A DNA stretch of 64,000 nt from an uncultured delta proteobacterium (GTDB lineage: Bacteria > Myxococcota_A > Polyangia > Polyangiales > Houyiibacteriaceae), in the NCBI GenBank assembly GCA_963842915.1, contig CAWJII010000004.1, positions 1 through 64,000 of the forward strand, written 5' to 3'. Positions 6,666-24,890 of the stretch are shown one piece after another. Position 1 is the stretch's first letter. Each line of letters opens with the position of its first letter. The position numbers and the translations under genes were made by a program. Below the pieces are notes generated by a model. The model did no database searches. It worked only from the letters and a program-made list of their open reading frames with translations, and was not told the DNA's origin.

Positions 6666-7136
6666 CCTGAGCTCTTTCTCGCCCTCGACCAATGGGTGGC
6701 CAAGGAGAACGTCCGGGCTCGGACCGATGGGATGCTTCCGCACAAGAAGTGCACCATTCGCGTGCTCGGGCAGGCCGCTCTGTGGGTCGGCAAGCCCGAT
6801 CTCACCCTGACTGCCACCCAAGACCTCGATGCGTACGCAGATTTCGAGTGGGCGGTTCAGCGGGAGCTGGAGCGGCTGCTGGCCAAAGAGGGGAAGGTTC
6901 TCGATCCACATGGACACGAGGTGTGGATGCCGCGCGAGACGCGGTACGATCCGCTCTACAAGGGCACTCACGTCGAAGCATTCGTCGCCGACCCCGATGC
7001 CGTTCTGATCTCCAAGGCCTCGAAAGCGGCCGAGAAGAACAAATCCCTGATCACGGAGTACCTAGCCAAGGGTGCGAGCGAGCGCTTCTTCGAGCTCGCG
7101 CAGAAGTACGACGTGGACTTGGAGCAGTTTGTATGA
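6654..7136 (+). CDS. hypothetical protein, gene A of an overlapping pair (weak minimal-nucleotidyltransferase-like pattern; function unknown)
   Basis: 160 aa, non-repetitive, sensible composition. Possible G…DLD…D.D spacing (LGQAALWVGKPDLTLTATQDLDAY … FVADPD). Stop overlaps the next start (ATGA). Confidence 0.5.
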   Translation: MYNLPELFLALDQWVAKENVRARTDGMLPHKKCTIRVLGQAALWVGKPDLTLTATQDLDAYADFEWAVQRELERLLAKEGKVLDPHGHEVWMPRETRYDPLYKGTHVEAFVADPDAVLISKASKAAEKNKSLITEYLAKGASERFFELAQKYDVDLEQFV

Positions 7137-7669
7137 CGCGGGCCCAAGAGGAGCTGGGGGCGAGGGCGCGCAAACGGTATACGGCGCTACGACGCAAGCA
7201 TCGAGATCCCCGTTTCCGAAACGTGATCGGCCGCTTTGTCAGCGAGGGCTTGCTCGAAACCAACATCGAAGGGATTCGTCCGCGCAAAGCGCCGGTGCCA
7301 CTCGACGATGCGTTGTGGGCCGGCACCGTGGAGCCGCGCATCATGGAGCTGCTTCCAGCCGTGCTGGTCAAGAAGCCGAGCCTGCTTCGGTTGCCGCGGG
7401 ATCTTCCCGATGACGTCATCGCGGTGATGCACGCGATCCGCCATGGAAAAGCGGTGCCGAACTTTCGAGGCGTGCCGCCCGAACAATACATGCCCTGGGT
7501 TACCGAAGTCGGTCGACGCGGCAAGTCGCCGTCCGTGCTGAAGAGCTTTCGCTTTCGACATGAAGACGTTCTTCGCCTGGCAAGGCTTCGCACCAACCTG
7601 CCGGCACGCTCCGACACCGACGTGATTCGAATGGCTCTCGAAGCACTCGAAGCCTCGGAGCGTGGATAG
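7133..7669 (+). CDS. hypothetical protein, gene B of the overlapping pair (basic; C-terminal DVIRMALEALE, possibly ribbon-helix-helix-like)
   Basis: 178 aa from the ATG at 7133, which overlaps the gene A stop. The longer track ORF 6692..7669 is the same frame extended upstream through an Arg-rich artefact. Confidence 0.5.
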   Translation: MTRAQEELGARARKRYTALRRKHRDPRFRNVIGRFVSEGLLETNIEGIRPRKAPVPLDDALWAGTVEPRIMELLPAVLVKKPSLLRLPRDLPDDVIAVMHAIRHGKAVPNFRGVPPEQYMPWVTEVGRRGKSPSVLKSFRFRHEDVLRLARLRTNLPARSDTDVIRMALEALEASERG

Positions 7670-7878
7670 GAGAATTGCTTGGCAAACCCAACGGGTCGGA
7701 CAAAAAAAGGAAATTTCGACCACTGGGGACGAGATTCGCATAATTCACGACGTTTCTTACCAAATCCGGCCCATTGGAAGCTCTCCAGAAGCTCGGCTGG
7801 TGCTGGCGGTCGCGCTGGTTGTGCTGAGCCTGCACATCTGGGCGCGGTTCTCTGCCGGCATGTTCCTCGAGTGCCGCT

Positions 7879-8247
7879 CTAGGCCTCGTGAAAGCCGCGC
7901 TGGCAGTCGACGCAAAACGGCGCCTCGGGCTTCGCAGTCAGGCGACGGAAGCCAATCGGCTCTTCGCATTTTCGGCAAAGGCCGTATTCGTCGCGCTCGA
8001 ACGCGGACAGCGCTCGCTTGCACTGGCCGAGCCGGAGCTGGGCCTTGTGACGCGTCGCTTTTGCCATGGCTTGCTGCTGCATCGCGTCCATCCGCGAGAG
8101 ACGGCCGACCGAACTCTGGTCGAGCGCCACGGGCGCAGCCGAGCTCGCGTTGGCCCGAAGCGCGGTCTCGAGCTCGGCAATGAGCGCAACGAGCTGCAGC
8201 CGCAATGCTTCGGCCTGTTCGGCTGAGAGCTCTTCCATCTCCATCAC
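7879..8247 (-). CDS. TraR/DksA family C4-type zinc-finger protein
   Basis: 122 aa. N-terminal coiled coil. [26 protein letters not shown] is the classic four-Cys motif. Confidence 0.85.
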
Positions 8248-8317
8248 GTCGACTCTAACAGACTTGATGCGGCTCTATCGCCCTGACCGAACGAACACCA
8301 GTGGTTGATGGCGTGGT

Positions 8318-8914
8318 TTACTTCACCGCGAAGCCGAACCAAGTCTGTCCCTGCGTACTCGAGCCGTAGCCCGCGCTGGTGCCCTTGACGTCTGCAGAAG
8401 AGCCCTGGGCGCCGAGGCTGAAAGCGTAGTCCCCGGCGGGCAGCGGTGCCGCGGTCGAAACCTCGTAGCAACCAGTCTTGATCTTCGTCAACTTGATCGG
8501 GATCGCGTTGTCGCCGGACTTTCGGTTCTTGCTGCCGCCGAAGGTGTTCACCCCGCCGATCACCAGCTCTCTGTACGACTTCTGACTCTTGAACGGATAG
8601 AGCCTGATTTGCTGCGCAGGATGCACCTCGGGGTCCATCGGCTTGACCGCGAACTTCTGGGCGGGCTTGACGGTAACCTGGGCTTGGGCACCCTCGAGCC
8701 TCACGCTGTTGTCGTAGCCGCGGTAGATGCCCTTCTTCTTCTGCTTCGCGATGGCTCTCTCTGGCGACAGCTCCTTGGCAGACTTGCCGTCCGGGCTGAT
8801 GACGCTGACCATGTTCTTGAATTCCGGGCACAAGTCCTGTGCGCTCGCGCTCGAGGGAATGGCGGAAATGGAGACGGCAAAGCCGAGGACGAAGAGGAAA
8901 ATCGTGTTCTTCAT
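8318..8914 (-). CDS. secreted hypothetical protein (start taken at MKNTIFLFVLGFAVSISAIPSSASA)
   Basis: Signal peptide. Visibly lower GC than its surroundings. No recognisable family. Confidence 0.55.
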   Translation of the reverse strand: MKNTIFLFVLGFAVSISAIPSSASAQDLCPEFKNMVSVISPDGKSAKELSPERAIAKQKKKGIYRGYDNSVRLEGAQAQVTVKPAQKFAVKPMDPEVHPAQQIRLYPFKSQKSYRELVIGGVNTFGGSKNRKSGDNAIPIKLTKIKTGCYEVSTAAPLPAGDYAFSLGAQGSSADVKGTSAGYGSSTQGQTWFGFAVK

Positions 8915-9042
8915 AGTCAACTGACTACACGAAGCCAAGTCCGATTTCAATTCTGTTGCTGCCCAGCCGAGTGCGATGGAACGGACGCGAAACCGGCTGC
9001 GCCCACTATTGGACAGAACCCCTCGAAGTTGCCGCCATGAGC

Positions 9043-9975
9043 CTAGGAAAAAGCCTTTGCCCTGCCGTCGACGTACTCACACGCCGCGACCAGCTGGGTC
9101 ACGAAGTTCGTCTTGCGGGCGGCGCAGGCGAAGTGATCCCCGTTGACCTCGAACTGCCTGGCACCCGGAATCGCCGCGGCGAGCGCATATTGACGTCGCG
9201 TGGGTACGATCTTGTCGCGCGTCGTAATCACGACCGCGGTCGGCACGGCGATGTTGGACACCCAGTTCCGTGACGAGAAGCGAACGACGGCTCGGGTTGC
9301 CTGAGCAAGCGTGGCTGGATCGCAGCCCGACATCTCAGTGCGAACGAAGTCCTTGCCCTGCTGCGTCGGCGCGGCTTTCACCATGTTGTCGATGATCTGC
9401 CCGAGCACGAACTTGGGCGCCAATCGAGCACCGACCACCGCCCCAGGCAAGATGGCGCGCGTCAGAATCGGAAACTGCTGCGGTGTGAAGTACCTCGAGG
9501 TCGCGCAGAGCACCAGGCCACGCACGCGCTCTGGGTGCCTGTTCCAGCACAGCTTGGCGATCGGACCGCCCATCGAATACCCAACTGCGATGAACCGGTC
9601 GATGCCAAGCTCGTCGGCCACAGCGACGACGTCGTCGGCGCAATCCTTCAGTCGGAAATGACGAGTGCGAATGCCCTGCCCGTGGCCACGGTGATCCACC
9701 GCAACCACATGGTACCGCTGCGCAAGCTCAGGAAACGCGGCAAACCAGTTGAGAGGCCCCGTCGCAGCAAGGCCGTGGAGCAACAGGAGTGTAGGAGCGC
9801 CCTCGGGTCCCTTGTGCTCGACGACGCGGATGCGGCCCCGCCCCTTCAGGTCTAAAAAGAGCTCTTCTCCGCGCGGCTTTGGCGGGTCTGAGTCCATCTT
9901 CGAAACATTTGTTGCTGCCGCTCCCATGGTTTCATGGCTGTGTGCGATGCCTCGAGTCAGTGCAAGCCAAGGCAC
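9043..9975 (-). CDS. alpha/beta hydrolase (start may be at an internal Met, 9927 or 9897)
   Basis: HGLAATGPLNW…VDHRGHGQG…GYSMGG nucleophile elbow. Confidence 0.8.
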   Translation of the reverse strand: MPWLALTRGIAHSHETMGAAATNVSKMDSDPPKPRGEELFLDLKGRGRIRVVEHKGPEGAPTLLLLHGLAATGPLNWFAAFPELAQRYHVVAVDHRGHGQGIRTRHFRLKDCADDVVAVADELGIDRFIAVGYSMGGPIAKLCWNRHPERVRGLVLCATSRYFTPQQFPILTRAILPGAVVGARLAPKFVLGQIIDNMVKAAPTQQGKDFVRTEMSGCDPATLAQATRAVVRFSSRNWVSNIAVPTAVVITTRDKIVPTRRQYALAAAIPGARQFEVNGDHFACAARKTNFVTQLVAACEYVDGRAKAFS

Positions 9976-15959: not shown

Positions 15960-16556
15960 TTGGGAGAGGGGTGGATGTCTCAGATTCTGAACGAATGGCC
16001 GACGATCGACATCGTCTTCTTGCTTTGCGCCGTGGCGGGGGGCGTAGCCTTCCTGGTGTGGCTCGGGCTGCAATTTCTGGGCGCTGATCTCGAAGGAGAC
16101 GTGGACGCGGGCGCGGATTTCGACGCATCGGAGGCCTCAGGCAGCTCTGATGTCAGCTTCACCCTGCTCTCCTTTCAGGGGCTTTCCGCTTTCCTGACGA
16201 TGTTCGGCCTGGTGGGCCTGTCGGCGCACCGTGAAGGAGAGGTCGGCGCGTTCTTGTCGCTCGGCCTCGCGATCGTCGCAGGCCTGGTCATGTCTTGGGT
16301 GCTCGGCCGGCTCTTCGCGACCTTCAGTAGGCTGCAGTCCAGCGGGACGATTCGGATGGAATCGGCGGTCGGCCAGGAGGGCACCGTCTACCTCACCCTG
16401 CCCGAAGCTGGCGAGGGAAAGGTGCAGCTGACGGTTCAAGGGCGCTTGAAGGTGATGCCCGCCATCGCCGAGAACGACGAGCGCATCGAAACCGGCGCCC
16501 GGGTCTTGGTGCTGCGGGTGAACGATGGCCACACGCTGGTGGTTACGAGACTCTAG
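15960..16556 (+). CDS. NfeD family protein (membrane anchor plus C-terminal OB-fold)
   Basis: C-terminal GQEGTVYLTLPEAGEGKVQLTVQGRLKVMPAI…ARVLVLRVNDGHTLVV. Sits immediately upstream of flotillin. Confidence 0.75.
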   Translation: MGEGWMSQILNEWPTIDIVFLLCAVAGGVAFLVWLGLQFLGADLEGDVDAGADFDASEASGSSDVSFTLLSFQGLSAFLTMFGLVGLSAHREGEVGAFLSLGLAIVAGLVMSWVLGRLFATFSRLQSSGTIRMESAVGQEGTVYLTLPEAGEGKVQLTVQGRLKVMPAIAENDERIETGARVLVLRVNDGHTLVVTRL

Positions 16557-16574
16557 CGCGAAGGAGAAACAGCG

Positions 16575-18050
16575 ATGATGTTCACGATGCTTGCGGCGAT
16601 TGCCGCCCTGGTTATCTTCATTGGCTTCGCGATCTATCTTGCATCGCGCTATCGGCGCTGCCCATCGGACCGAATTCTGGTCGTCTACGGCAGGGTCGGT
16701 GCCGGGCAATCGGCGCAGTGCATTCACGGTGGCGGCAAGCTCATCTTGCCGCTGGTCCAAGATTACTCCTACCTCTCGCTCACGCCGTTGACGATCAGCA
16801 TCCCGCTGCAAAACGCGCTGTCGCTTCAGAACATCCGCATCAACGTGCCCAGCACCTTCACCGTCGGTGTCAGCACCCAGCCGACCATCATGACCAACGC
16901 GGCCGAGCGCCTCCTCGGCCTGGACGACGCTGCCGTCGAAGACATGGCGCGGGAAATCATCTTCGGGCAGCTCCGCCTGACGGTCGCTTCGTTGACGATC
17001 GAGCAGATCAACCAGGACCGCGAGAGCTTCCTCGAGTCGATTCGCAAGAACGTCGAGCCGGAGCTGAACAAGATCGGGCTCTACCTCATCAATGTGAACA
17101 TCACGGACATCACCGACGAGTCCACTTACATCGAGAGCATCGGTAAGAAGGCGGCCGCCGAGGCGATCAACACCGCCCGTGTCGACGTGTCGGCTCAGGA
17201 GAAGATGGGCGCCATCGGTGAAGCCGAGGCCTTTCGCGAGAAGGACGTCCGCGTGGCCGAAAACGCGGCCCAAGCGGTCAAAGGGACGAAGGCGGCCGAG
17301 GCCGATCGGCGGATTTTCGTCGAGCAACAGGAAGCCGCGGCGATCAAAGGCGAGAAACAAGCGGAGGCCGACCGGCGAATCTTCGTGCAGGAGCAAGAAG
17401 CCCAAGCGATCGACGGTGAGAACACGTCGAAGGCCAACATCGCGGAATACAATGCGCGACTGGCGGTGCGAGAGGCAGAAGCGCTGCGGCAGGGTGAGGT
17501 GGCTAAGCGCCAGGCAGAGGCAGCCATTCAGAAGGCGCAGTACCTGACCGAGCAAGAGCGGCTTCGCGCCGCAGAGATCGCACGAGAAGAAATCGACAAG
17601 CAGAAGGTCGAGATCTCGGCAGAAGCCGAGGCCGAGAAGCTTCGGCGAGAGGCCCACGGTGAAGCCGACGCCATCCTGGCCAGGTACAAGGCGGAGGCCG
17701 AAGGTACGCTCAGCGTTCTTCAAGCCAAAGCTGAGGGGTACCAGCGACTGGTCGAAGCGGCCGGGGGAGACGCCAAGGCCGCCGCCACCCTGCTCATGGT
17801 CGAGAAGATCGAAGCAATCGTCGCGAGTCAGGTCGAGGCGATTCAGAATTTGAAAATCGACAAGATCACGGTTTGGGACTCCGGAAATGCGGAGCATGGG
17901 TCCAGCACTTCGGGCTTTATCTCCAGCCTCATCCGATCGCTTCCGCCAATTCACGAGCTGTCCGAGATGGCTGGCGTGGAGCTTCCGGAGTACCTCGGCA
18001 AGGTGATCGAAGATTCGAAGAGCGCTCCCGACACGAAGGCGAAGGCCTAA
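16575..18050 (+). CDS. flotillin / SPFH-domain family protein
   Basis: 491 aa. N-terminal TM, SPFH domain, and a long Ala/Glu-rich coiled coil with repeated AEADRRIFV. Confidence 0.9.
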   Translation: MMFTMLAAIAALVIFIGFAIYLASRYRRCPSDRILVVYGRVGAGQSAQCIHGGGKLILPLVQDYSYLSLTPLTISIPLQNALSLQNIRINVPSTFTVGVSTQPTIMTNAAERLLGLDDAAVEDMAREIIFGQLRLTVASLTIEQINQDRESFLESIRKNVEPELNKIGLYLINVNITDITDESTYIESIGKKAAAEAINTARVDVSAQEKMGAIGEAEAFREKDVRVAENAAQAVKGTKAAEADRRIFVEQQEAAAIKGEKQAEADRRIFVQEQEAQAIDGENTSKANIAEYNARLAVREAEALRQGEVAKRQAEAAIQKAQYLTEQERLRAAEIAREEIDKQKVEISAEAEAEKLRREAHGEADAILARYKAEAEGTLSVLQAKAEGYQRLVEAAGGDAKAAATLLMVEKIEAIVASQVEAIQNLKIDKITVWDSGNAEHGSSTSGFISSLIRSLPPIHELSEMAGVELPEYLGKVIEDSKSAPDTKAKA

Positions 18051-18113
18051 CCTGAACAAGCGACGCTGATCGCCCGTGTTTTCCGTGAACGTGTAGACAT
18101 CGTAATTCCGCTG

Positions 18114-18128
18114 TGGCACCTTGAAAGC
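18114..18128 (+). promoter_or_regulatory. possible sigma-54 promoter (TGGCAC-N5-AAGC; GG and GC at the canonical 10-nt spacing, -12 element imperfect)
   Basis: Read directly. It overlaps the TTG taken as the kinase start in the ORF track, so the true start may lie downstream (TTG at 18145). Confidence 0.25.
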
Positions 18129-19236
18129 CGATTTGGGGGGGGCTTTGACGGGGGCTCGGACAAGCTGGGAAGTTGGCCAGGCGTGGGCGCAAGACGTCCT
18201 GCGCGCGCTGAACGCAGGCATCATCGTGTTCTCCGGCAGCGGCGAGATTCTGTTTGGCAATCCCCGCGCGCGCGTCGTCCTTCATCGGAAATGGGACAAC
18301 TTGGTCGGCGCCAATGTGTCCGATGTGCTGGTCAGCGTCGAGGATCTCGTCGCGGGCGCCAACGAAGAGCGCATCGAGTTCGACATCAGACTTCCCGGCG
18401 GTGAGCTCATCGCGATCGGCGCTTCGATCACGGCCCTGGGAGTCGACGAGTCGGCCGATCTGGGCTCGCTCCCACCGCAGAGCGAGCGAACCTACGCGTG
18501 CATGTTCCAGGACATCACGCAGCTACGTCAGATTCAGGTCGAACGAGACCGCCTTCTTCAAGTCGGAGCCTTGAATGCTGCGCTGCCGTCGGTTCTGCAC
18601 GAGCTTCGTAATCCAGTGGCCGCCATCGCCACCAGCCTGGAAGTTCTCGTGGAGGAATCCGAAGGCGATTTGCAGAACGACCTGCATGCGCTTCTCACGG
18701 AAATCCGGCGAGTGAGCCTGAACCTGCAGGGAGTCGGTTCGGTGGTGCGTGACTTGCGCTCATCTCGCTTCGCTGCAGTCGACGAGTGCCTGCACAACCT
18801 GCTTCGCGTCATGGAGGCCCAAGCCGAAGCAAAGGCGGTCACGCTCGTCGACGAGATCGACACGATGCCGCTGTTGCCTCTCGACGTCAGCGTCGTTCAG
18901 GCGATCGCGTTCAATCTGATTCACAACGCGATTGCCGCATCGAACGAAGGGGGCGCGGTCAAAGTCAAAGCCTGCCTCGATTCTGGTCGTTCGTTCTACC
19001 TCGTCGTCACCGACGCCGGTGCGGGCATGTCCGAAGAGGTCATGCAGAGGGCAACCAGCCTGTTCTTCACCACGAAATCGCGAGGAAGCGGGCTCGGTTT
19101 GGCGCTGGTCAAGCGCTGCGTGGAAACAGCGAACGGCCAACTCCGGTTCTTCTCTGAGCTCGGCAAGGGGACCGAGGCTACCGTCATCATTCCGGAGGCG
19201 ACCAGTCCACCGGGCAAAACAGTTGCAAGAGCGTAA
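18121..19236 (+). CDS. sensor histidine kinase (PAS-like, HisKA, HATPase_c)
   Basis: H-box LHELRNP; G-boxes DAGAGM and GSGLGL. The start is uncertain. Confidence 0.85.
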   Translation: MKADLGGALTGARTSWEVGQAWAQDVLRALNAGIIVFSGSGEILFGNPRARVVLHRKWDNLVGANVSDVLVSVEDLVAGANEERIEFDIRLPGGELIAIGASITALGVDESADLGSLPPQSERTYACMFQDITQLRQIQVERDRLLQVGALNAALPSVLHELRNPVAAIATSLEVLVEESEGDLQNDLHALLTEIRRVSLNLQGVGSVVRDLRSSRFAAVDECLHNLLRVMEAQAEAKAVTLVDEIDTMPLLPLDVSVVQAIAFNLIHNAIAASNEGGAVKVKACLDSGRSFYLVVTDAGAGMSEEVMQRATSLFFTTKSRGSGLGLALVKRCVETANGQLRFFSELGKGTEATVIIPEATSPPGKTVARA

Positions 19237-19276
19237 GCATTGGCGGTGGGGTCCACCGCGAGAATAGGGGGAACAC

Positions 19277-19642
19277 ATGTCGAGAGTCGATCACCTGAAC
19301 AAGATACTACGTTCGCTGCAGAGCGGCTCACCGGACGTCGAAGCAAGCGCACTGATCTCCGAGGACGGTCTCATGATCGCAAGCGCCCTACCCGCGCACG
19401 TCGACGAAACCCGGGTTGCGGGCATGTCGGCAACACTGCTGTCACTGGGCACTCGCGCTGCGACCGAGCTGGAGCGCGGCGACGTCATGGAGGTGCTGGT
19501 TCGCGGCAAGGATGGCTACGCGGTCATGCTCGATGCCGGTGGCGGGACACTACTTCTGGTCATGGCAAACGCGGCCGCCAAGTTGGGCCTCATCTTTCTC
19601 GACATGCGACGAGCCGTCGTCGACATCAAGAAAATCCTCTAA
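19277..19642 (+). CDS. roadblock/LC7 domain protein (MglB-like)
   Basis: 121 aa; typical roadblock pattern SALISEDGLMIAS…GYAVMLDAGGGTLLLVMAN. Confidence 0.85.
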   Translation: MSRVDHLNKILRSLQSGSPDVEASALISEDGLMIASALPAHVDETRVAGMSATLLSLGTRAATELERGDVMEVLVRGKDGYAVMLDAGGGTLLLVMANAAAKLGLIFLDMRRAVVDIKKIL

Positions 19643-19660
19643 GGGACGAAAGGATTTCCC

Positions 19661-20419
19661 ATGCCTAATACAGTTCTCTACGACCAGAACGGCCACAAGA
19701 ACATCCTTCTGCCCGATTTCGGCCACGGCGGCCTTGCGGTGCAGGCCAACCAGCACCTCGTCATTCACGGCAACGAGGGGATGATTCTCGACCCCGGCGG
19801 GCACAAAGTCTACAACAAGGTGCTCTCCGAGACGACGTCCTTGCTCGGCGGCGCGCAGCTCAAGTACCTGTTCCTGTCCCATCAAGATCCGGACATCATC
19901 GCAGCGGTGAACGGCTGGCTCATGACCACAGACGCAGAGGCCTATATCTCGTCGCTGTGGATTCGATTCGTTCCGCACTTCGGCCTCGATCGCCTGGTCG
20001 CCGACCGGCTCAAACCCATTCCCGATGAGGGAATGAAGCTGAGCTTGGGCGGCCAGGATCTGCTCGCGCTCCCGGCCCATTTCCTGCACTCGACCGGAAA
20101 CTTCCACCTCTACGATCCCGTATCGAAGATTCTGTACACCGGAGATCTCGGAGCCTCCCTCGGGCAAGAGTACATCTTCGTGTCCGACTTCGATTCGCAC
20201 CTGCAGTACATGGAAGGGTTTCACAGGCGGTACATGGCAAGCACCAAGGCTCTGCAGGTCTGGGTGAAGCTGGCTCGCCAGTTGGACATCGAAATCATCG
20301 CGCCTCAGCATGGCGCGCAGTTCAAGGGCAAAGAGATGGTCAACAAGTTCATCGACTGGTGCGACACCCTGGAGTGCGGCATCGACGCGATGGAAGGCAT
20401 CTACAAGATCCCCAGCTGA
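19661..20419 (+). CDS. MBL-fold metallo-hydrolase, possibly ODP/flavodiiron-type di-iron sensor domain
   Basis: 252 aa. Degenerate MBL motif LSHQDPD plus downstream His/Asp ligands (HFLHS, GDLG, PQHG). Compact single-domain size like ODP. Confidence 0.75.
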   Translation: MPNTVLYDQNGHKNILLPDFGHGGLAVQANQHLVIHGNEGMILDPGGHKVYNKVLSETTSLLGGAQLKYLFLSHQDPDIIAAVNGWLMTTDAEAYISSLWIRFVPHFGLDRLVADRLKPIPDEGMKLSLGGQDLLALPAHFLHSTGNFHLYDPVSKILYTGDLGASLGQEYIFVSDFDSHLQYMEGFHRRYMASTKALQVWVKLARQLDIEIIAPQHGAQFKGKEMVNKFIDWCDTLECGIDAMEGIYKIPS

Positions 20420-20429
20420 GGAGCTCCTG

Positions 20430-21530
20430 GTGAACGCGTTACTCTTGGTGGTGGAAGATGAGCCGGTCCTGCGGATCTCGCTGGTTCGCGGCCTGACGAA
20501 GCTCCAAGGAGTCACCGCGGTCGGCGCTGGAACCATCGCCGAGGCGCTCGAGATCATCGAAAACGAACCTCCGCAGTTGATTGTCTCCGACATCGACTTG
20601 CCCGACGGATCGGGGCTCGAGCTCATCTCGGTCTTGGACCAGAGGTCGCTGAAGATCCCGATCATCTACGCATCGGCGTACGTCGCGAAGTACCGCGTTC
20701 AAATTCCATCCCGGAGCAACATCACGGTTCTCGAGAAACCAATTCCGCTGGCCGAGATTCGCAAGATGGTAACCGATCGGCTCAGTGTCGCGCAGAGTGA
20801 AGAGGAGAAAGCGGCTCCCTTCGACGCGACGGACTATCTGCAACTGGCCTGTATGTGCCGCAAGTCGGTGGACATCGTCGTGCACCAAGAGGCAGAAGAG
20901 CTCGGCCACATCTTGATTCGAGACGGCGAGCTCTGGGGAGCGGTGAAGGGCCAATCGCAGGGAGAGGAGGCGCTGCGCGAGTTGGTGTTCGCCACCGGGG
21001 TGGAAGTCAGCTGCGTAGGCATTCGGCGCCCCGAGACAGAGCGAACGATCCATCAAAGCTGGGAGTCGATTCTGCTCGAAGCCGCGCGGCTTCACGATGA
21101 AGGGGAAGCCTCCCCCAAGGGTCCCTTCGACGACGACGGCACGGTCACCTTCGAGTTCGACCGTGTGGAAGAGGAGCAGCCGAAAACCGCGCCACCCCCA
21201 GCGCCCCCCGCAAACACGGCCGAGTCGAGGCCCACAGTCGTGTTCGACTACGAGAAACGAGAACGCCGCTTGCGAGAATACGAAGAGAGCCAGTACCCGG
21301 CCAGGAACGTCGACACCCAAAGTCAAACCGCACCAGCCGCGTCGAACTACGTCAAGGTCCGCTTTGACGAGCTCTACGAAGAGGGGGTCGACGCGCTTTT
21401 GGCGCGCGACTACCCGCGAGCTCTCGAGGCCTTCAAGGAATGCAACAGCCTGGTGCCGACCGACTCGCGCGTCATCGCCAACCTAAAACGGCTGACGGAC
21501 ATGGGGTACGCCACGGGAGAGGACTCATGA
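20430..21530 (+). CDS. response regulator with C-terminal DUF4388-like domain
   Basis: GTG start, with GAGGAG 6 nt upstream. Receiver motifs LLVVEDEP and IVSDIDLPDGSG. Confidence 0.85.
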   Translation: MNALLLVVEDEPVLRISLVRGLTKLQGVTAVGAGTIAEALEIIENEPPQLIVSDIDLPDGSGLELISVLDQRSLKIPIIYASAYVAKYRVQIPSRSNITVLEKPIPLAEIRKMVTDRLSVAQSEEEKAAPFDATDYLQLACMCRKSVDIVVHQEAEELGHILIRDGELWGAVKGQSQGEEALRELVFATGVEVSCVGIRRPETERTIHQSWESILLEAARLHDEGEASPKGPFDDDGTVTFEFDRVEEEQPKTAPPPAPPANTAESRPTVVFDYEKRERRLREYEESQYPARNVDTQSQTAPAASNYVKVRFDELYEEGVDALLARDYPRALEAFKECNSLVPTDSRVIANLKRLTDMGYATGEDS

Positions 21531-22162
21531 GCAACGCCGTTCGCTCGCCGGTGCTGGGAGAACAGGTTCCCCTCTTCGTCATCATCGGGCTCACGATCAT
21601 TGGTGTGCTAAGCGCGCTGCTCACGACCAAGGCGCTTGCCGAGCGCGCGTCGAAAGGGCGGCCGAGCACGCCGACGCCTCAGGTCGCGCCGGCCTCCCCC
21701 GTCGACGAAACGCAGACGACGATGCAGGCGGCTGTGCCGGAGAGCCCACGAGAAGCGCAGACTCCCACGGTTGCGCAAGAGCCCGCTGCGCCGGACTGTC
21801 CCGAGTTTCCGGGCTTCTCGTTCCGTGTCGGTCGTAGCAAACCCGTCGACAACCTAGACGACGGTGTTCGCGCCGTCGTCGCCTGGATGCAGCGTCACCC
21901 CGACGCTGTCCTCATCATCGAGGGACATGCCGACGCCACCGGAGGCCCCAAGCTCAATCTGAGCCTGAGCTTCGATCGCGCCCGGGCAGTTGCCGAGCTC
22001 TTCGCTTTGCAGGGTCTGGACCCCCTGCGCATCGACGTCGAGGCGTATGGCGCGTTCCGCCCCATTGAACGGCGAGACGGACCATCCGCAGTCGATCGCC
22101 GCGTAAGCCTGCGCACCGGTGGTGAACCGGCGTGTTCACATCGAGAAGGGAACAAGCCATGA
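21527..22162 (+). CDS. MotB/OmpA-like protein (N-terminal TM plus C-terminal OmpA peptidoglycan-binding domain)
   Basis: ATGA overlap with the response regulator. IEGHADATGGPKLNLSLSFDRARAV is an OmpA-like signature. Confidence 0.75.
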   Translation: MSNAVRSPVLGEQVPLFVIIGLTIIGVLSALLTTKALAERASKGRPSTPTPQVAPASPVDETQTTMQAAVPESPREAQTPTVAQEPAAPDCPEFPGFSFRVGRSKPVDNLDDGVRAVVAWMQRHPDAVLIIEGHADATGGPKLNLSLSFDRARAVAELFALQGLDPLRIDVEAYGAFRPIERRDGPSAVDRRVSLRTGGEPACSHREGNKP

Positions 22163-22950
22163 GTGCCATCGTATTGCTTTGGGCCGGCCTCGCCATCGCG
22201 ATGCTCCTGAGCTCGGGCTATCTATTCGGCGTCTACTCGAGTCGCGTGGCCCGTCAGTCGCTACGCACAGCGCTTTCCAACGCCGAAGCGCACAACGCGG
22301 CTCTCAAGGCCCAGGTCGTCGACGATCAGAATGCAATCCGCGAGCTGGCGTCCCAACTCGAGCGCGCTCGAAGCATGCTCGCGGGTCGGGCTCCTCTTGC
22401 CGATCGCAGCGGCGAGCGCATGGAAGAGATCGCCAGCAGAGTGAAAGCCGAGATCGCGCCGCTCCTTCAAGGCGCGCAGAGGTCCGAACAGCTCCATGCC
22501 GACCTCAAGCGGCAACTTCAACCCCTTCTCGAACGAGACCAGGCGACCTCAGCACTCGCCAATCTCGACCCAGCAATTGCCGAGTCGGGCGACCTGCCCA
22601 ACGCGCTGACGCTCATCGCGGACGCCGGCGGTTTCGGCACTGTCGTGCTCAGTGACAACGTCGGTTTGCCAATGGCGAACAACAAGGGAGGCAAAGACGT
22701 CGAAGTCCACGCGGGCCTATCGTCCTTGCTCTTGACCATGGTCGATCGTGTCAAAGGCAACGAGCTGCCCGCACCGATCGCCGCGGTTTTTCGCGACCAG
22801 GCCAACCAGGTCGTCGTGCACCGAGTTTTCACCGTGGACTCCGAACGCTACGTCCTCACGGCCGTGGCGACCGGCAAGTCGATGGCTCCGGACATCCTCG
22901 ACCCGACCCTCAAAACCGTCGAACGCATCATCGATCGGGCGCGCTGGTAG
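22159..22950 (+). CDS. membrane-anchored coiled-coil protein with C-terminal roadblock/LC7-like domain
   Basis: ATGA overlap with the previous gene. TM, coiled coil, then GFGTVVLSDNVGLPMANN…HAGLSSLLL. Confidence 0.6.
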   Translation: MSAIVLLWAGLAIAMLLSSGYLFGVYSSRVARQSLRTALSNAEAHNAALKAQVVDDQNAIRELASQLERARSMLAGRAPLADRSGERMEEIASRVKAEIAPLLQGAQRSEQLHADLKRQLQPLLERDQATSALANLDPAIAESGDLPNALTLIADAGGFGTVVLSDNVGLPMANNKGGKDVEVHAGLSSLLLTMVDRVKGNELPAPIAAVFRDQANQVVVHRVFTVDSERYVLTAVATGKSMAPDILDPTLKTVERIIDRARW

Positions 22951-22985: not shown

Positions 22986-23017
22986 TTACAGAGAGAGGCG
23001 TCGGGCTTCTCTCTGTA
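22986..23017 (+). terminator. stem-loop tacagagaga-N12-tctctctgta after the operon (no U tract)
   Basis: Perfect 10-bp stem read directly. Confidence 0.3.
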
Positions 23018-23183
23018 TGGGGCAAGCGAGGAACGGCGAAGATGCCGCATGTTTTGGGTCGAGCTCGGGCGACCTCCCAACCAATAGGACCGTCAGCTTG
23101 CCCTGACGCTAGCCGATACGCCTTGCGGGCTATCTCTCAAACGGTACCGTTAATACTTGAGGGCTATCGTAGGGGGGATCGTG

Positions 23184-24890
23184 ATGTTGAAGATGAGATA
23201 CGCCGTGTTGGCTGCCATATTGAGCTCGACAGGCTGTGGAACGGCTGCGCTCGAAGAAGTCGAGCCAAGGGATTCGGAGTCGCCAGGCAACGTCGACAAT
23301 CCGGCTGCTTCGGATCCGAGTTGCGCCAATTGCCAGGATCCCGGCGCACAAGTTCCGCCCACCACCGACCCGGGCGCACAAGTTCCGCCCACCACCGACC
23401 CGGGCGCACAAGTTCCGCCAGCCGCCGATCCCGGCGCACAAGCTCCGCCGGTCACAGATCCCGGCGCACAAGCTCCGCCGGTCACAGATCCCGGCGCACA
23501 AGATCCGCCGGTCACAGATCCCGGCGCACAAGATCCGCCGGTCACCGATCCTGGCGCGCAAGATCCGCCGGTCACCGATCCTGGCGCACAAGATCCGCCG
23601 GTCACCGATCCCGGCGCGCAAGATCCTCCCGCCACCGATCCCGGCGACGGATGCGCTGCGTGCCCGGACCCGCTCCCCAGCGATCCCCCGGACCTTCCGC
23701 CGGCGACCTGCAACGCCCCTTCGGGTCCGGTCGACACATCGAACCCGACGCGGGTCGTGGGAGACGGAACTCCGGCGAGTTGTACCGAAAGTGCGCTACG
23801 CGATGCGATCGCAGGCGGCGGTATCATCACCTTCGACTGTGGGTCGGCAAACAAGACCATCAGCATCACACAGACGCTGGTTGCACCCTCGGACCGTGAC
23901 ACCACGATCGACGGCAACCACAAGATCACCTTGGACGGCGGCGGCAACACGCAGATCCTCACGGCTTACGACGGCGACTGGCGCAACAACGGGCACACGC
24001 TCACGGTGCAACGGCTCGTGATGCAGCGCGGGCACGATCCCGGAACCGGCTACGCCCCCCGCAGCGGCGACAGCCTCTGCGCTTGGGGATACAAGGACGG
24101 CGGTGGGGGCGCGATCTTCACGCGCAATGTCAAGGTACACGTATGGGGCGCGACCTTCCTAGACAACCAGGGTCCCGATATCGGACCCGACGTAGCTGGC
24201 GGTGCGATCTACGTGCTCGGCGCTATCGAGCTAGTCGTCACCAATAGCGCGTTCCGCGGCAACTCAGCCTCGAACGGCGGTGCCATCGGCCTGCTTCACA
24301 CCGCCTCCTACCTCTACAACGTCACCTTCGAGGACAACGCAGCGACCGGGATGCTGGCGAATTTCGCCGGGGGCGAGGCCGCGGGTTGTCCGGTGTTCAA
24401 CCATGGCGATCAGGGCGGAGCCGGCGGGCTTGGCGGCGCCTTCTACACCGATGGGCACGATCCTGAGGTCGTGTTTTGCGGGGTCGAGATGTCCAGCAAC
24501 GTATCGGGCGACCTCGGCGGCGCGGTCTTCGTTTCGCGATACTGGGGCACCGGCGGGGGACGCCAAACGATCACCTGGGAGAAGTCGACCTTCACCGACA
24601 ACTACTCCCCCACCGGAGGCGGTGGGGCGGCGTACGTGAACAACTCGTACTTCACGCTGAATGACTGTAGCTTCGACGGGAACTCCGCAGGAGACGGCGA
24701 CGGCGGTGCGCTCAAGTTCAACGGCATCACGTTGAACGCTAGTGACGTGTCCTTCACCAACAACACATCGGCGTGGGGTGGCGCGGTCGCGCACTGGGGC
24801 GGAGGCCCTGAAGGCACAGGTACGGCGACCAACATCACCCTCTCGGGCAACACACCCAACGACTTCGTCGGCGACTTCCCCGCGCCTTGA
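23184..24890 (+). CDS. lipoprotein with 11 tandem DPGAQxPPVT repeats followed by a right-handed parallel beta-helix domain
   Basis: Lipobox LSSTGCG. RBS aggggggat. Beta-helix motifs GGAIY…NSAFRGNSASNGGAIGL. Confidence 0.75.
   Translation: MLKMRYAVLAAILSSTGCGTAALEEVEPRDSESPGNVDNPAASDPSCANCQDPGAQVPPTTDPGAQVPPTTDPGAQVPPAADPGAQAPPVTDPGAQAPPVTDPGAQDPPVTDPGAQDPPVTDPGAQDPPVTDPGAQDPPVTDPGAQDPPATDPGDGCAACPDPLPSDPPDLPPATCNAPSGPVDTSNPTRVVGDGTPASCTESALRDAIAGGGIITFDCGSANKTISITQTLVAPSDRDTTIDGNHKITLDGGGNTQILTAYDGDWRNNGHTLTVQRLVMQRGHDPGTGYAPRSGDSLCAWGYKDGGGGAIFTRNVKVHVWGATFLDNQGPDIGPDVAGGAIYVLGAIELVVTNSAFRGNSASNGGAIGLLHTASYLYNVTFEDNAATGMLANFAGGEAAGCPVFNHGDQGGAGGLGGAFYTDGHDPEVVFCGVEMSSNVSGDLGGAVFVSRYWGTGGGRQTITWEKSTFTDNYSPTGGGGAAYVNNSYFTLNDCSFDGNSAGDGDGGALKFNGITLNASDVSFTNNTSAWGGAVAHWGGGPEGTGTATNITLSGNTPNDFVGDFPAP
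23335..23650 (+). repeat. tandem 30-bp coding repeat (~10.5 copies) cccggcgcacaagWtccgccSRccRccgat
   Basis: Read directly. Copies differ only at 2-4 positions. Confidence 0.85.

Follow-up and report, generated by a model that had tools for sequence, protein, structure and literature searches.

What does a roadblock protein do when no GTPase is encoded beside it? In a survey from 2014, 328 MglB homologs were uncoupled to MglA and no orphan MglB had been characterised at that time (PMC4316618). The question is raised by an operon of an uncultured delta proteobacterium of the Polyangiales (GenBank assembly GCA_963842915.1, contig CAWJII010000004.1), of which we analysed positions 1 to 64,000 on the forward strand, hereafter called the window. 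The operon lies at 18121–22950 and encodes a histidine kinase (HK), a soluble roadblock protein (Robl), a protein of the metallo-β-lactamase (MBL) fold which we assign to the ODP family, a response regulator (RR), an OmpA-like membrane protein and a sixth protein which we call P6. The reading that we favour, with moderate confidence and on the strength of sequence comparisons, is that the operon encodes a cytoplasmic pathway for sensing O2 (possibly Fe(II)), which would be docked on a peptidoglycan-anchored membrane pair.

Six co-directional, tightly packed open reading frames (ORFs) were found on the + strand exactly where the first-pass annotation had placed a six-gene signalling operon, and the same gene order was observed in independent assemblies (Table 1). 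The ATGA overlaps between the RR and OmpA-like genes (21527–21530) and between the OmpA-like gene and P6 (22159–22162) are both real as read from the sequence. The same is true for the GTG start of the RR at 20430, which has GGAG 6 nt upstream. The other gaps had been given as 19–41 bp and needed correction, as we read intergenic gaps of 40, 18 and 10 nt. Purine-rich ribosome-binding sites lie 5' of all starts. The HK start, TTG at 18121, is the first start codon of its ORF and the resulting length fits the called homologs (349–373 amino acids). The HK, roadblock, MBL/ODP, RR with DUF4388 and OmpA domains were all matched in Pfam. Among the six proteins, hydrophobic segments of transmembrane strength were seen only in the OmpA-like protein (residues 14–32) and P6 (residues 1–25). 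The window P6 is 100% identical to a protein with the locus tag WBN29_00185 from a Polyangiales metagenome-assembled genome (MAG).

The MBL-fold protein had been proposed, from its degenerate metal motif and its size, to resemble ODP or flavodiiron domains, and its family, motifs and fold all place it with ODP. It matched Pfam PF19583 with 243.2 bits (cutoff 27.2) over profile positions 1–194 of 194, and in phmmer its residues 3–249 aligned with the solved ODPs 6qrq/6qwo (E 1.9e-72) and 6qnm/6r9n (E 2.2e-64). The AlphaFold2 (AF2) model (pLDDT 85.6) was closest to the solved di-iron ODPs, with Foldseek TM-scores of 0.84–0.88. Flavodiiron proteins followed (query-normalised TM-score about 0.7) and zinc β-lactamases were only the third-nearest fold (about 0.58). 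The titles of the PDB entries among these matches include 'Peroxy diiron species of chemotaxis sensor ODP', and by their titles the solved ODP structures cover apo, Zn-reconstituted and peroxo-di-iron states.

At motif 2 the window protein has H74-Q-D76-P-D78-I, which replaces HxHxDH. The motifs SHQDPD (residues 73–78), PAHFLHS (138–144), GDLGA (with D162) and PQHGA (215–219) are the same in both solved ODPs and, written as SHQDPD, PAHFLHS, GDxGA and APQHGA, invariant in 20 homologs. The putative metal ligands are H74, D76, D78, H140/H143, D162, Q216 and H217. The ligand set described for ODP lacks the third His of MBL motif 2 and uses a Gln from motif 5 in its place (PMC7785958). Since the motif set of the window protein agrees with this description, we conclude that the canonical ligands of zinc hydrolases are absent, and by fold the protein does not group with these hydrolases either. 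The MBL protein is, as judged by sequence and model, a predicted di-iron sensor of the ODP type and not a zinc hydrolase. It consists of the MBL core alone, with no flavodoxin or rubredoxin domain in Pfam or in the PDB alignment; the source databases name its homologs 'FprA family A-type flavoprotein' or 'flavorubredoxin'. The family members with solved structures bind O2 at a di-iron site and serve as sensors in chemotaxis. In T. denticola, the chemotactic O2 sensor ODP is genetically coupled to a sensor-less methyl-accepting chemotaxis protein (MCP) and influences CheA (PMC7666581).

To assess the conservation of the operon, we searched the representative genomes of GTDB with an ODP alignment and, of at least 573 relatives, retained the 80 loci closest to the window ODP. 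A metagenome scan with a Robl alignment gave another 80 loci, and all ORFs of both sets (loci with L numbers) were searched with the six window proteins. The ORFs were called mechanically as the longest frame, so their lengths are upper bounds. Co-occurrence was counted over the 63 ODP-anchored loci with enough flanking sequence. Robl adjoins ODP in 59 of these 63 loci, and Robl, the OmpA-like gene and P6 stand beside ODP in 46 (the four-gene core). HK and PATAN genes are beside ODP in nine loci, and all six genes were present in six. Full six-gene synteny was seen in L006/L007, L008, L010/L011, L031, L084, L096, L097 and L136, and the same six genes surround the P6 homologs in L006/L007 and L008. 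The HK gene is relocated to the 3' end in L010, L011, L090 and L091. The recurrence of the six-gene synteny in independent assemblies answers the concern, raised with the first-pass annotation, that the genes might not be conserved as a unit.

The four-gene core is carried by MAGs labelled Alpha-, Beta- and Gammaproteobacteria (Defluviicoccus, Rhodomicrobium, Nitrosomonas, Dechloromonas, Competibacter and Methylococcaceae are examples), by one Acidimicrobiales-labelled MAG and by Myxococcota. The Robl-ODP pairing was also found on single MAG contigs labelled Acidimicrobiales and Planctomycetota. Smaller sets occur as well. In the Alphaproteobacteria, where Robl has no fused NTPase, the core stands alone between unrelated genes and without any regulator in L089 and L092. 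HK-Robl-ODP-RR without the anchor pair was seen in L035, L050, L085, L088, L108, L124 and L131, and Robl-sensor-PATAN-P6, without a receiver domain (REC) and without HK, in L014, L025, L101 and L110.

Robl is the most conserved component, with 64–98% identity to the window protein across Myxococcota and Proteobacteria, and ODP follows with 65–84%. The values are lower for HK (37–76%, orthologs in syntenic loci), RR (35–68%), the OmpA-like protein (30–60%) and P6 (28–72%). Since Robl and ODP are far more conserved than the other four proteins, the window operon is an invariant input pair joined to two optional modules. The six-gene set is a Myxococcota-type, lineage-specific union, and the widespread unit is Robl-ODP, with or without OmpA-P6. 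In one locus (L143, 6139–8159) a single Robl gene is flanked by two ODP genes.

The idea of gas sensing gained support from close relatives in which a protoglobin, alone or together with ODP, takes the sensor position. In L001 (7549–8088) a protoglobin of 179 amino acids occupies the slot between Robl and RR and ODP is absent, and the Robl of this locus is nevertheless 95% identical to that of the window. Protoglobin and ODP occur together in L004 (protoglobin at 1195–1758) and L100, and a protoglobin is also present beside Robl in L093 and L110. The locus protoglobins contain an H-x-R-I-G-L sequence, which we take to be the proximal His context of sensor globins. A protoglobin which replaces or joins ODP gives independent support for gas sensing.

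Other genes accompany more distant Robl homologs (52–55% identity). In L159, L161 and L170 (54–55% identity, about 7000–9600), genes for a V4R-domain protein and a glycosyltransferase of family 2 come after Robl, with a REC-GGDEF gene between these two in L161 and, by matching ORF sizes, in L170. Further homologs lie directly upstream of the genes for the small and large subunits of a [NiFe]-hydrogenase (L113, 6474–9948; L172, 2241–7487). The hydrogenase-linked Robl comes after an AAA_22-Robl fusion and a HupH_C gene in L113, and after a REC-PATAN-TPR regulator in L172, where a second Robl gene follows. These may be sensory hydrogenases. In a Chromatiales/Gammaproteobacteria class (L045, L047, L048, L052, L056, L057 and L060), a divergent Robl (about 37% identity) is paired with ODP without OmpA or P6 and is preceded by a conserved gene for an outer-membrane β-barrel. 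L056 alone has Hpt-REC, PAS-HK, REC and Hpt-REC-GGDEF genes downstream of ODP, an arrangement which is not conserved in the class. A conserved ORF of 127 amino acids upstream of Robl in this class is Arg-rich and was rejected as a likely spurious frame. Taken together, the sensor exchanges indicate that the slot is an input for a gas or small molecule and that Robl is the constant partner.

The soluble Robl matched Pfam PF03259 with 55.5 bits (cutoff 23). We searched the window for a GTPase or NTPase partner by phmmer, using an MglA sequence and the AAA_22 domain as queries, and by a scan for G1, G3 and G4 motifs. In the 64 kb there was no MglA-like match, no ORF with the three motifs together and no homolog of the AAA_22 domain. 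No GTPase was present among the annotated genes around the related loci, where the remaining flanking ORFs were not screened for GTPases. The absence of a GTPase from the operon, as first annotated, therefore holds for the window at the sensitivity used. It does not extend to NTPases in the whole family, since the Beta- and Gammaproteobacterial Robl is the C-terminal domain of a protein of 450–650 amino acids with an N-terminal AAA_22/AAA_16 P-loop NTPase (Table 1). The AAA_22 part has no sequence relative in the PDB, and an ExeA-like analogy for it stays speculative for this reason. An association of roadblock proteins with NTPases was proposed by Koonin and Aravind, as cited in PMC4476040. 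The fusions indicate that this association survives in the Beta- and Gammaproteobacteria. The Myxococcota-type loci that we analysed have HK and REC-PATAN genes instead and no NTPase domain fused to Robl.

HK and RR possess all the catalytic motifs of a two-component system. HK shows H160 (HELRNP), an N-box at 265, DAGAGM at 298, FFTTK at 315 and GSGLGL at 322. It has a weak N-terminal PAS domain and no transmembrane segment. In the RR, counted from the GTG start, REC covers residues about 6–114, with the acidic pocket E9/D10, the phospho-acceptor D54 and the conserved K103, and DUF4388 (PATAN) covers about 131–224 (30.7 bits, cutoff 25). DUF4388 was also matched in the RR orthologs, and homologs of the C-terminus yield Pfam TPR matches. 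Where the PATAN protein carries REC, 19 of 23 loci also have an HK gene, against none of the six loci whose PATAN protein lacks REC (Fisher p 4e-4). HK and RR genes are gained and lost together.

The last two genes encode the envelope pair. The OmpA-like protein has a short cytoplasmic N-terminus, a transmembrane helix, a Pro/Ala-rich linker and an OmpA-like peptidoglycan-binding domain with the signatures GHADATG and NLSLSFDRARAV. Its homologs share R-(L/V)-x-G-E-x-x-P directly before the helix and have few basic residues after it, which fits a topology with the N-terminus inside and the OmpA domain outside. In the window the motif reads SPVLGEQVP (21527–21570), and the homologs come from L008–L086. 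A partner in the cytoplasm might dock at this LxGExxP peptide. The protein had been called MotB-like, and this name describes its architecture (N-terminal helix, C-terminal OmpA domain) and not its further features, as the transmembrane segment VPLFVIIGLTIIGVLSALL has no Asp and no MotA_ExbB homolog was found by phmmer in the 64-kb window. Matches to the NCBIfam models of YiaD, Pal and MotB type were all far below the cutoff. We also rejected a defence island, since PADLOC gave only a ZorB match, via the OmpA domain. In 58 of 71 loci, the OmpA-like gene ends in a 4-nt overlap of its stop codon with a start codon (ATGA in 47, GTGA in seven and TTGA in four). The recurrent overlap points to translational coupling with P6 and suggests that the two proteins form a stoichiometric complex.

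P6 had been described as a membrane roadblock protein, for which Pfam gives no support. We found no Pfam or NCBIfam match, a weak hhalign comparison with the window Robl (E 0.013, probability 3%) and a weak profile match to LAMTOR2 in the PDB (E 0.05–0.25). Several homologs are named Roadblock/LC7/MglB by JGI and one (P0216) matches PF03259. The roadblock fold became visible in the AF2 model, built with 56 homologs (pLDDT 88.4, and 90–96 over residues 141–250). It consists of a helix at 2–76, which includes the transmembrane segment and a coiled coil, a second helix at 84–134 and an α-β-β-α-β-β-β-α domain at 146–262. Foldseek returned M. xanthus MglB first (E 1.6e-6, TM-score 0.66), then T. 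thermophilus MglB, an Asgard Roadblock protein, LAMTOR2 and the C-terminal domains of Rag proteins. There were 71 PDB matches at E ≤ 0.001, and nearly all of the 50 listed have the roadblock fold (MglB, LAMTOR/MP1-p14, Rag C-terminal domains and LC7). According to the model, P6 is a membrane-tethered, divergent protein of predicted roadblock fold. Its transmembrane segment (residues 2–25) has a conserved AGYLFG, and the basic stretch RRGxxAREqLR comes immediately after the segment. This position of the basic residues puts the roadblock domain on the cytoplasmic side. The family is clearly delimited and of medium size, with 170 clusters at E ≤ 1e-30 out of 1.84 billion representatives. One called ORF (P0126, 420 amino acids; L005, 4262–5530) matches both HK (E 7e-33) and P6 (E 4e-96), as a result of either a gene fusion or a chimeric assembly. 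The ORF stands by itself, with a MotA_ExbB gene nearby on the opposite strand.

From these parts we propose the following pathway. Depending on O2 or on its iron load, ODP would change its conformation or its oligomerisation. Robl would serve as the adaptor for this change, in a position from which proteins of the MglB type usually read a GTPase. The complex of Robl and ODP could then modulate autophosphorylation of the sensor-poor, soluble HK at H160, and the phosphate would pass on to the RR at D54. The output would come from the PATAN-TPR region of the RR through contacts with other proteins, which might be ATPases of the pilus or secretion type or polarity proteins, as with the cyanobacterial PATAN regulators. 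P6 might be a coiled-coil dimer whose roadblock domains offer a docking site to the soluble Robl, given that such domains pair and stack in MglB/MglC and Ragulator. The transmembrane helices and the cytoplasmic LxGExxP peptide may hold P6 and the OmpA-like protein together. The pair would be fixed to the cell wall, which would tie signalling to one place in the envelope. The Robl-ODP input of other lineages would be wired to the AAA_22 NTPase fused to Robl.

Several points weigh against this proposal. Robl is 95% identical when a protoglobin replaces ODP, and such constancy would be expected no less of a Robl with a sensor-independent role than of one that binds the sensor directly. The weak PAS domain of HK could itself be the real input, or the sensors could act on this PAS domain, with Robl serving another role. 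The REC-PATAN order of the RR is the reverse of that in characterised PatA-type regulators. As the ODP loci are those closest to the window ODP, the co-occurrence figures hold for a single ODP clade within a larger family. Many of the loci were taken from MAGs or short contigs, and binning errors may have entered the phylum assignments of the MAGs.

A different explanation would return the operon to GTPase biology. Robl and P6 could play the part of MglB/MglC towards a Ras-like GTPase whose gene lies elsewhere in the genome, with ODP, HK and RR only tuning the GTPase-activating function, and the output would be polarity, type IV pili or gliding. The fold of P6, which is nearest to M. xanthus MglB, would suit this, as would the host, a Polyangiales myxobacterium. 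PATAN proteins often neighbour MglA/MglB genes and PATAN binds pilus motor proteins, and the proteobacterial Robl is fused to a P-loop NTPase. However, there is no GTPase in the 64 kb and none among the annotated genes around the relatives (the other flanking ORFs there being unscreened), and in Alphaproteobacteria the four-gene core stands alone with a Robl that has no fused NTPase. We regard this explanation as unlikely. We are similarly doubtful that the signal is iron, another metal or redox stress and not O2, in which case ODP would report Fe(II) loading and the anchored pair would link it to envelope physiology. In work of Muok and colleagues from 2019, ODP reportedly mediated responses to iron as well as oxygen, and the apo, Zn-reconstituted and peroxo-di-iron states in the titles of the solved structures would be compatible with such a role. 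Against it, the haem gas-binding protoglobin that replaces or doubles ODP points to a diatomic gas as the shared signal, as do the hydrogenase subunits encoded beside related Robl genes.

It is far less probable that ODP is an O2/NO-reducing or scavenging enzyme like the flavodiiron proteins, merely co-regulated by the two-component system. Flavodiiron proteins are the second-closest fold class and the database labels of the homologs point the same way, but the 252 amino acids of ODP are the MBL core only, without the flavodoxin or rubredoxin domain. Moreover, it is near-invariably paired with a roadblock adaptor, occurs in four-gene cores without any regulator and is exchangeable for a sensor globin. 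Finally, HK/RR and OmpA/P6 are each dispensable in some lineages, as might be expected if the genes were neighbours by chance or merely co-transcribed without forming a functional system. We give this hardly any credence, as gene order and orientation are kept across classes and phyla, the 4-nt overlaps recur and HK and REC co-vary.

Table 1. Features of the operon and the related Robl fusions; positions refer to the window unless a locus (L number) is named
Feature	Position	Strand	Evidence and remarks
HK, soluble sensor histidine kinase, 371 amino acids	18121–19236	+	Pfam HATPase_c E 1.9e-18, HisKA E 3e-6, PAS E 4e-4
Robl, Roadblock/LC7 (MglB-like), 121 amino acids	19277–19642	+	Pfam Robl_LC7 E 4.8e-15
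ODP, MBL fold, 252 amino acids	19661–20419	+	Pfam ODP PF19583 E 2.6e-72
RR, REC-PATAN(DUF4388)-Pro-rich linker-TPR-like C-terminus, 366 amino acids from GTG	20430–21530	+	Response_reg E 5e-16, DUF4388 E 3.5e-7
OmpA-like bitopic inner-membrane protein	21527–22162	+	Pfam OmpA E 1.6e-12
P6, transmembrane segment, coiled coil and predicted roadblock-fold domain	22159–22950	+	AF2 model and Foldseek
Stem-loop, 13 bp, 37 nt past the P6 stop, without U tract	22987–23017	+	Folding, -41.7 kcal/mol for 116 nt, z -2.5
AAA_22-Robl fusions	L053, 8106–9965; L015, L016, L020, L032, L041, L072, L107, L109, L111, L115, L117, L120		

The stem-loop behind P6 is a possible transcript end, which was not called in the consensus terminator scan. 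The scan of the window for sigma-70 promoters and intrinsic terminators was uninformative, with 0 promoters and terminators no commoner than in shuffled sequences. Upstream of the operon, 70 nt before HK, a membrane protein of 198 amino acids (no Pfam match, possibly NfeD-like) and a flotillin of 491 amino acids are encoded at 15960–18050 (+). The flotillin matched Band_7 (E 4e-27) and stayed below the cutoff of the NCBIfam FloT model. We rejected this pair as a part of the system, since the relatives carry different upstream genes, and its link to the operon is probably local. An ORF of 707 amino acids at 16137–18260 (-), antisense to the flotillin and overlapping the HK start, is Arg/Gly-rich and was discarded as it looks spurious. 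Long spurious antisense ORFs are common in high-GC DNA, and the window contains others of this kind. Downstream, at 23157–24890 (+), an ORF of 577 amino acids has an N-terminal hydrophobic segment and about ten tandem DPGAQxPPxT repeats followed by Gly/Asn-rich repeats, with a weak Pfam match to Chlam_PMP. Its product is probably secreted, and the repeats suggest a β-helix surface protein.

How does the operon compare with known systems? Among the known systems, its sensor is matched by the chemotaxis ODPs (T. denticola TDE2498/TDE2496 and Thermotoga maritima; PDB 6r9n, 6qnm, 6qrq and 6qwo), which have the same family and fold, with 42–46% identity in the structural alignment and TM-scores of 0.84–0.88. 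Both they and the window ODP carry the HxDxD...H...D...QH motif set and are stand-alone soluble sensors encoded beside a signalling partner. The partner of the chemotaxis ODPs is a sensor-less MCP that acts on CheA, whereas the window ODP is accompanied by Robl, HK, REC-PATAN and OmpA/P6, with no MCP or Che genes in the operon. Among themselves the Robl-linked ODPs share 65–84% identity across phyla, a far closer relationship than they have with the chemotaxis ODPs.

The actinobacterial conservon/AGPS (CvnA HK, CvnB roadblock, CvnC, CvnD GTPase and the accessory CvnF; PMC13343842, PMC13621833, PMC4316618) likewise combines an HK with an MglB-type roadblock protein in one operon. In this Robl-containing system, the separate accessory protein CvnF8 modulates (stimulates) an HK without sensory domain (PMC13343842), a close functional analogy to the pathway proposed here. 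In contrast to the conservon, we found no CvnD GTPase in the window and no CvnC-like family among the Pfam and NCBIfam matches of the six proteins. The HK is soluble, a cognate-type RR is added, the sensor is ODP or protoglobin and not a GAF protein, and there are an extra membrane roadblock protein and an OmpA anchor. The MglA/MglB/MglC/RomR system of M. xanthus shares with the window two roadblock-fold paralogs and a receiver protein, and MglB is structurally nearest to the P6 domain. The window differs by having no MglA, by the anchoring of P6 through a transmembrane helix and coiled coil, and by the linked gas sensor and peptidoglycan anchor.

The RR resembles the PatA-type regulators PixG, PixE and PilG of Synechocystis in combining PATAN with a receiver, but the order is reversed to REC-PATAN, there is an extra TPR-like C-terminus, and the input comes from an HK and not a CheA-type kinase. 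In Synechocystis, PATAN is an output domain which binds PilB1/PilC, and MglA/MglB genes often lie near PATAN genes (10.1101/2021.06.11.447907; PMC4316618). A structural precedent, in which a gas-binding globin is coupled to Roadblock/LC7 similar to sensor and Robl here, is HGbRL of Methylacidiphilum infernorum (PMC4476040). HGbRL is a single-polypeptide fusion in one genus, whereas here the proteins are separate, the sensor is di-iron or protoglobin and many lineages are involved. Ragulator (LAMTOR) is a membrane-tethered roadblock platform like P6, and LAMTOR2 is among the fold and profile matches of P6; unlike the window system it is eukaryotic, lipid-anchored and serves Rag GTPases. The MotB/Pal anchors have the N-terminal transmembrane helix and C-terminal OmpA-like domain of our OmpA-like protein, but MotB needs MotA and a transmembrane Asp, and the window protein has neither. 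The system is distinct from the conservon, the MglA/MglB pair, the PatA-type regulator and the Mot stator, while each part comes from a known family. The first-pass annotation had not recognised the combination as a described system, and we too found no published description of the Robl-ODP pairing or the four-gene core in the literature searched.

These findings offer a concrete, testable function for orphan roadblock proteins. ODP has so far been known only as an input of chemotaxis receptors, and here it apparently feeds a two-component pathway via a roadblock protein. If true, this would widen the known repertoire of bacterial O2/Fe sensing. The exchange of ODP and protoglobin is a natural experiment which supports the sensing role, and many carriers are wastewater and sediment bacteria at oxic-anoxic interfaces (Competibacter, Nitrosomonas, Defluviicoccus and Dechloromonas). 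The results point to a GTPase-independent role of roadblock proteins as sensor adaptors and membrane docking platforms, reminiscent of the eukaryotic Ragulator. More tentatively, the operon may belong to a widespread, as yet undescribed class of bacterial gas-sensing platforms, in which a near-invariant orphan Robl would be the universal adaptor between interchangeable sensors (ODP, protoglobin, [NiFe]-hydrogenase and V4R) and transducers (HK to REC-PATAN, a fused AAA_22 NTPase, or a phosphorelay to GGDEF) on a peptidoglycan-anchored pair of a TM-OmpA and a TM-coiled coil-roadblock protein (TM, transmembrane segment). If this is true, roadblock proteins would read the state of metalloprotein sensors as they read GTPases elsewhere.

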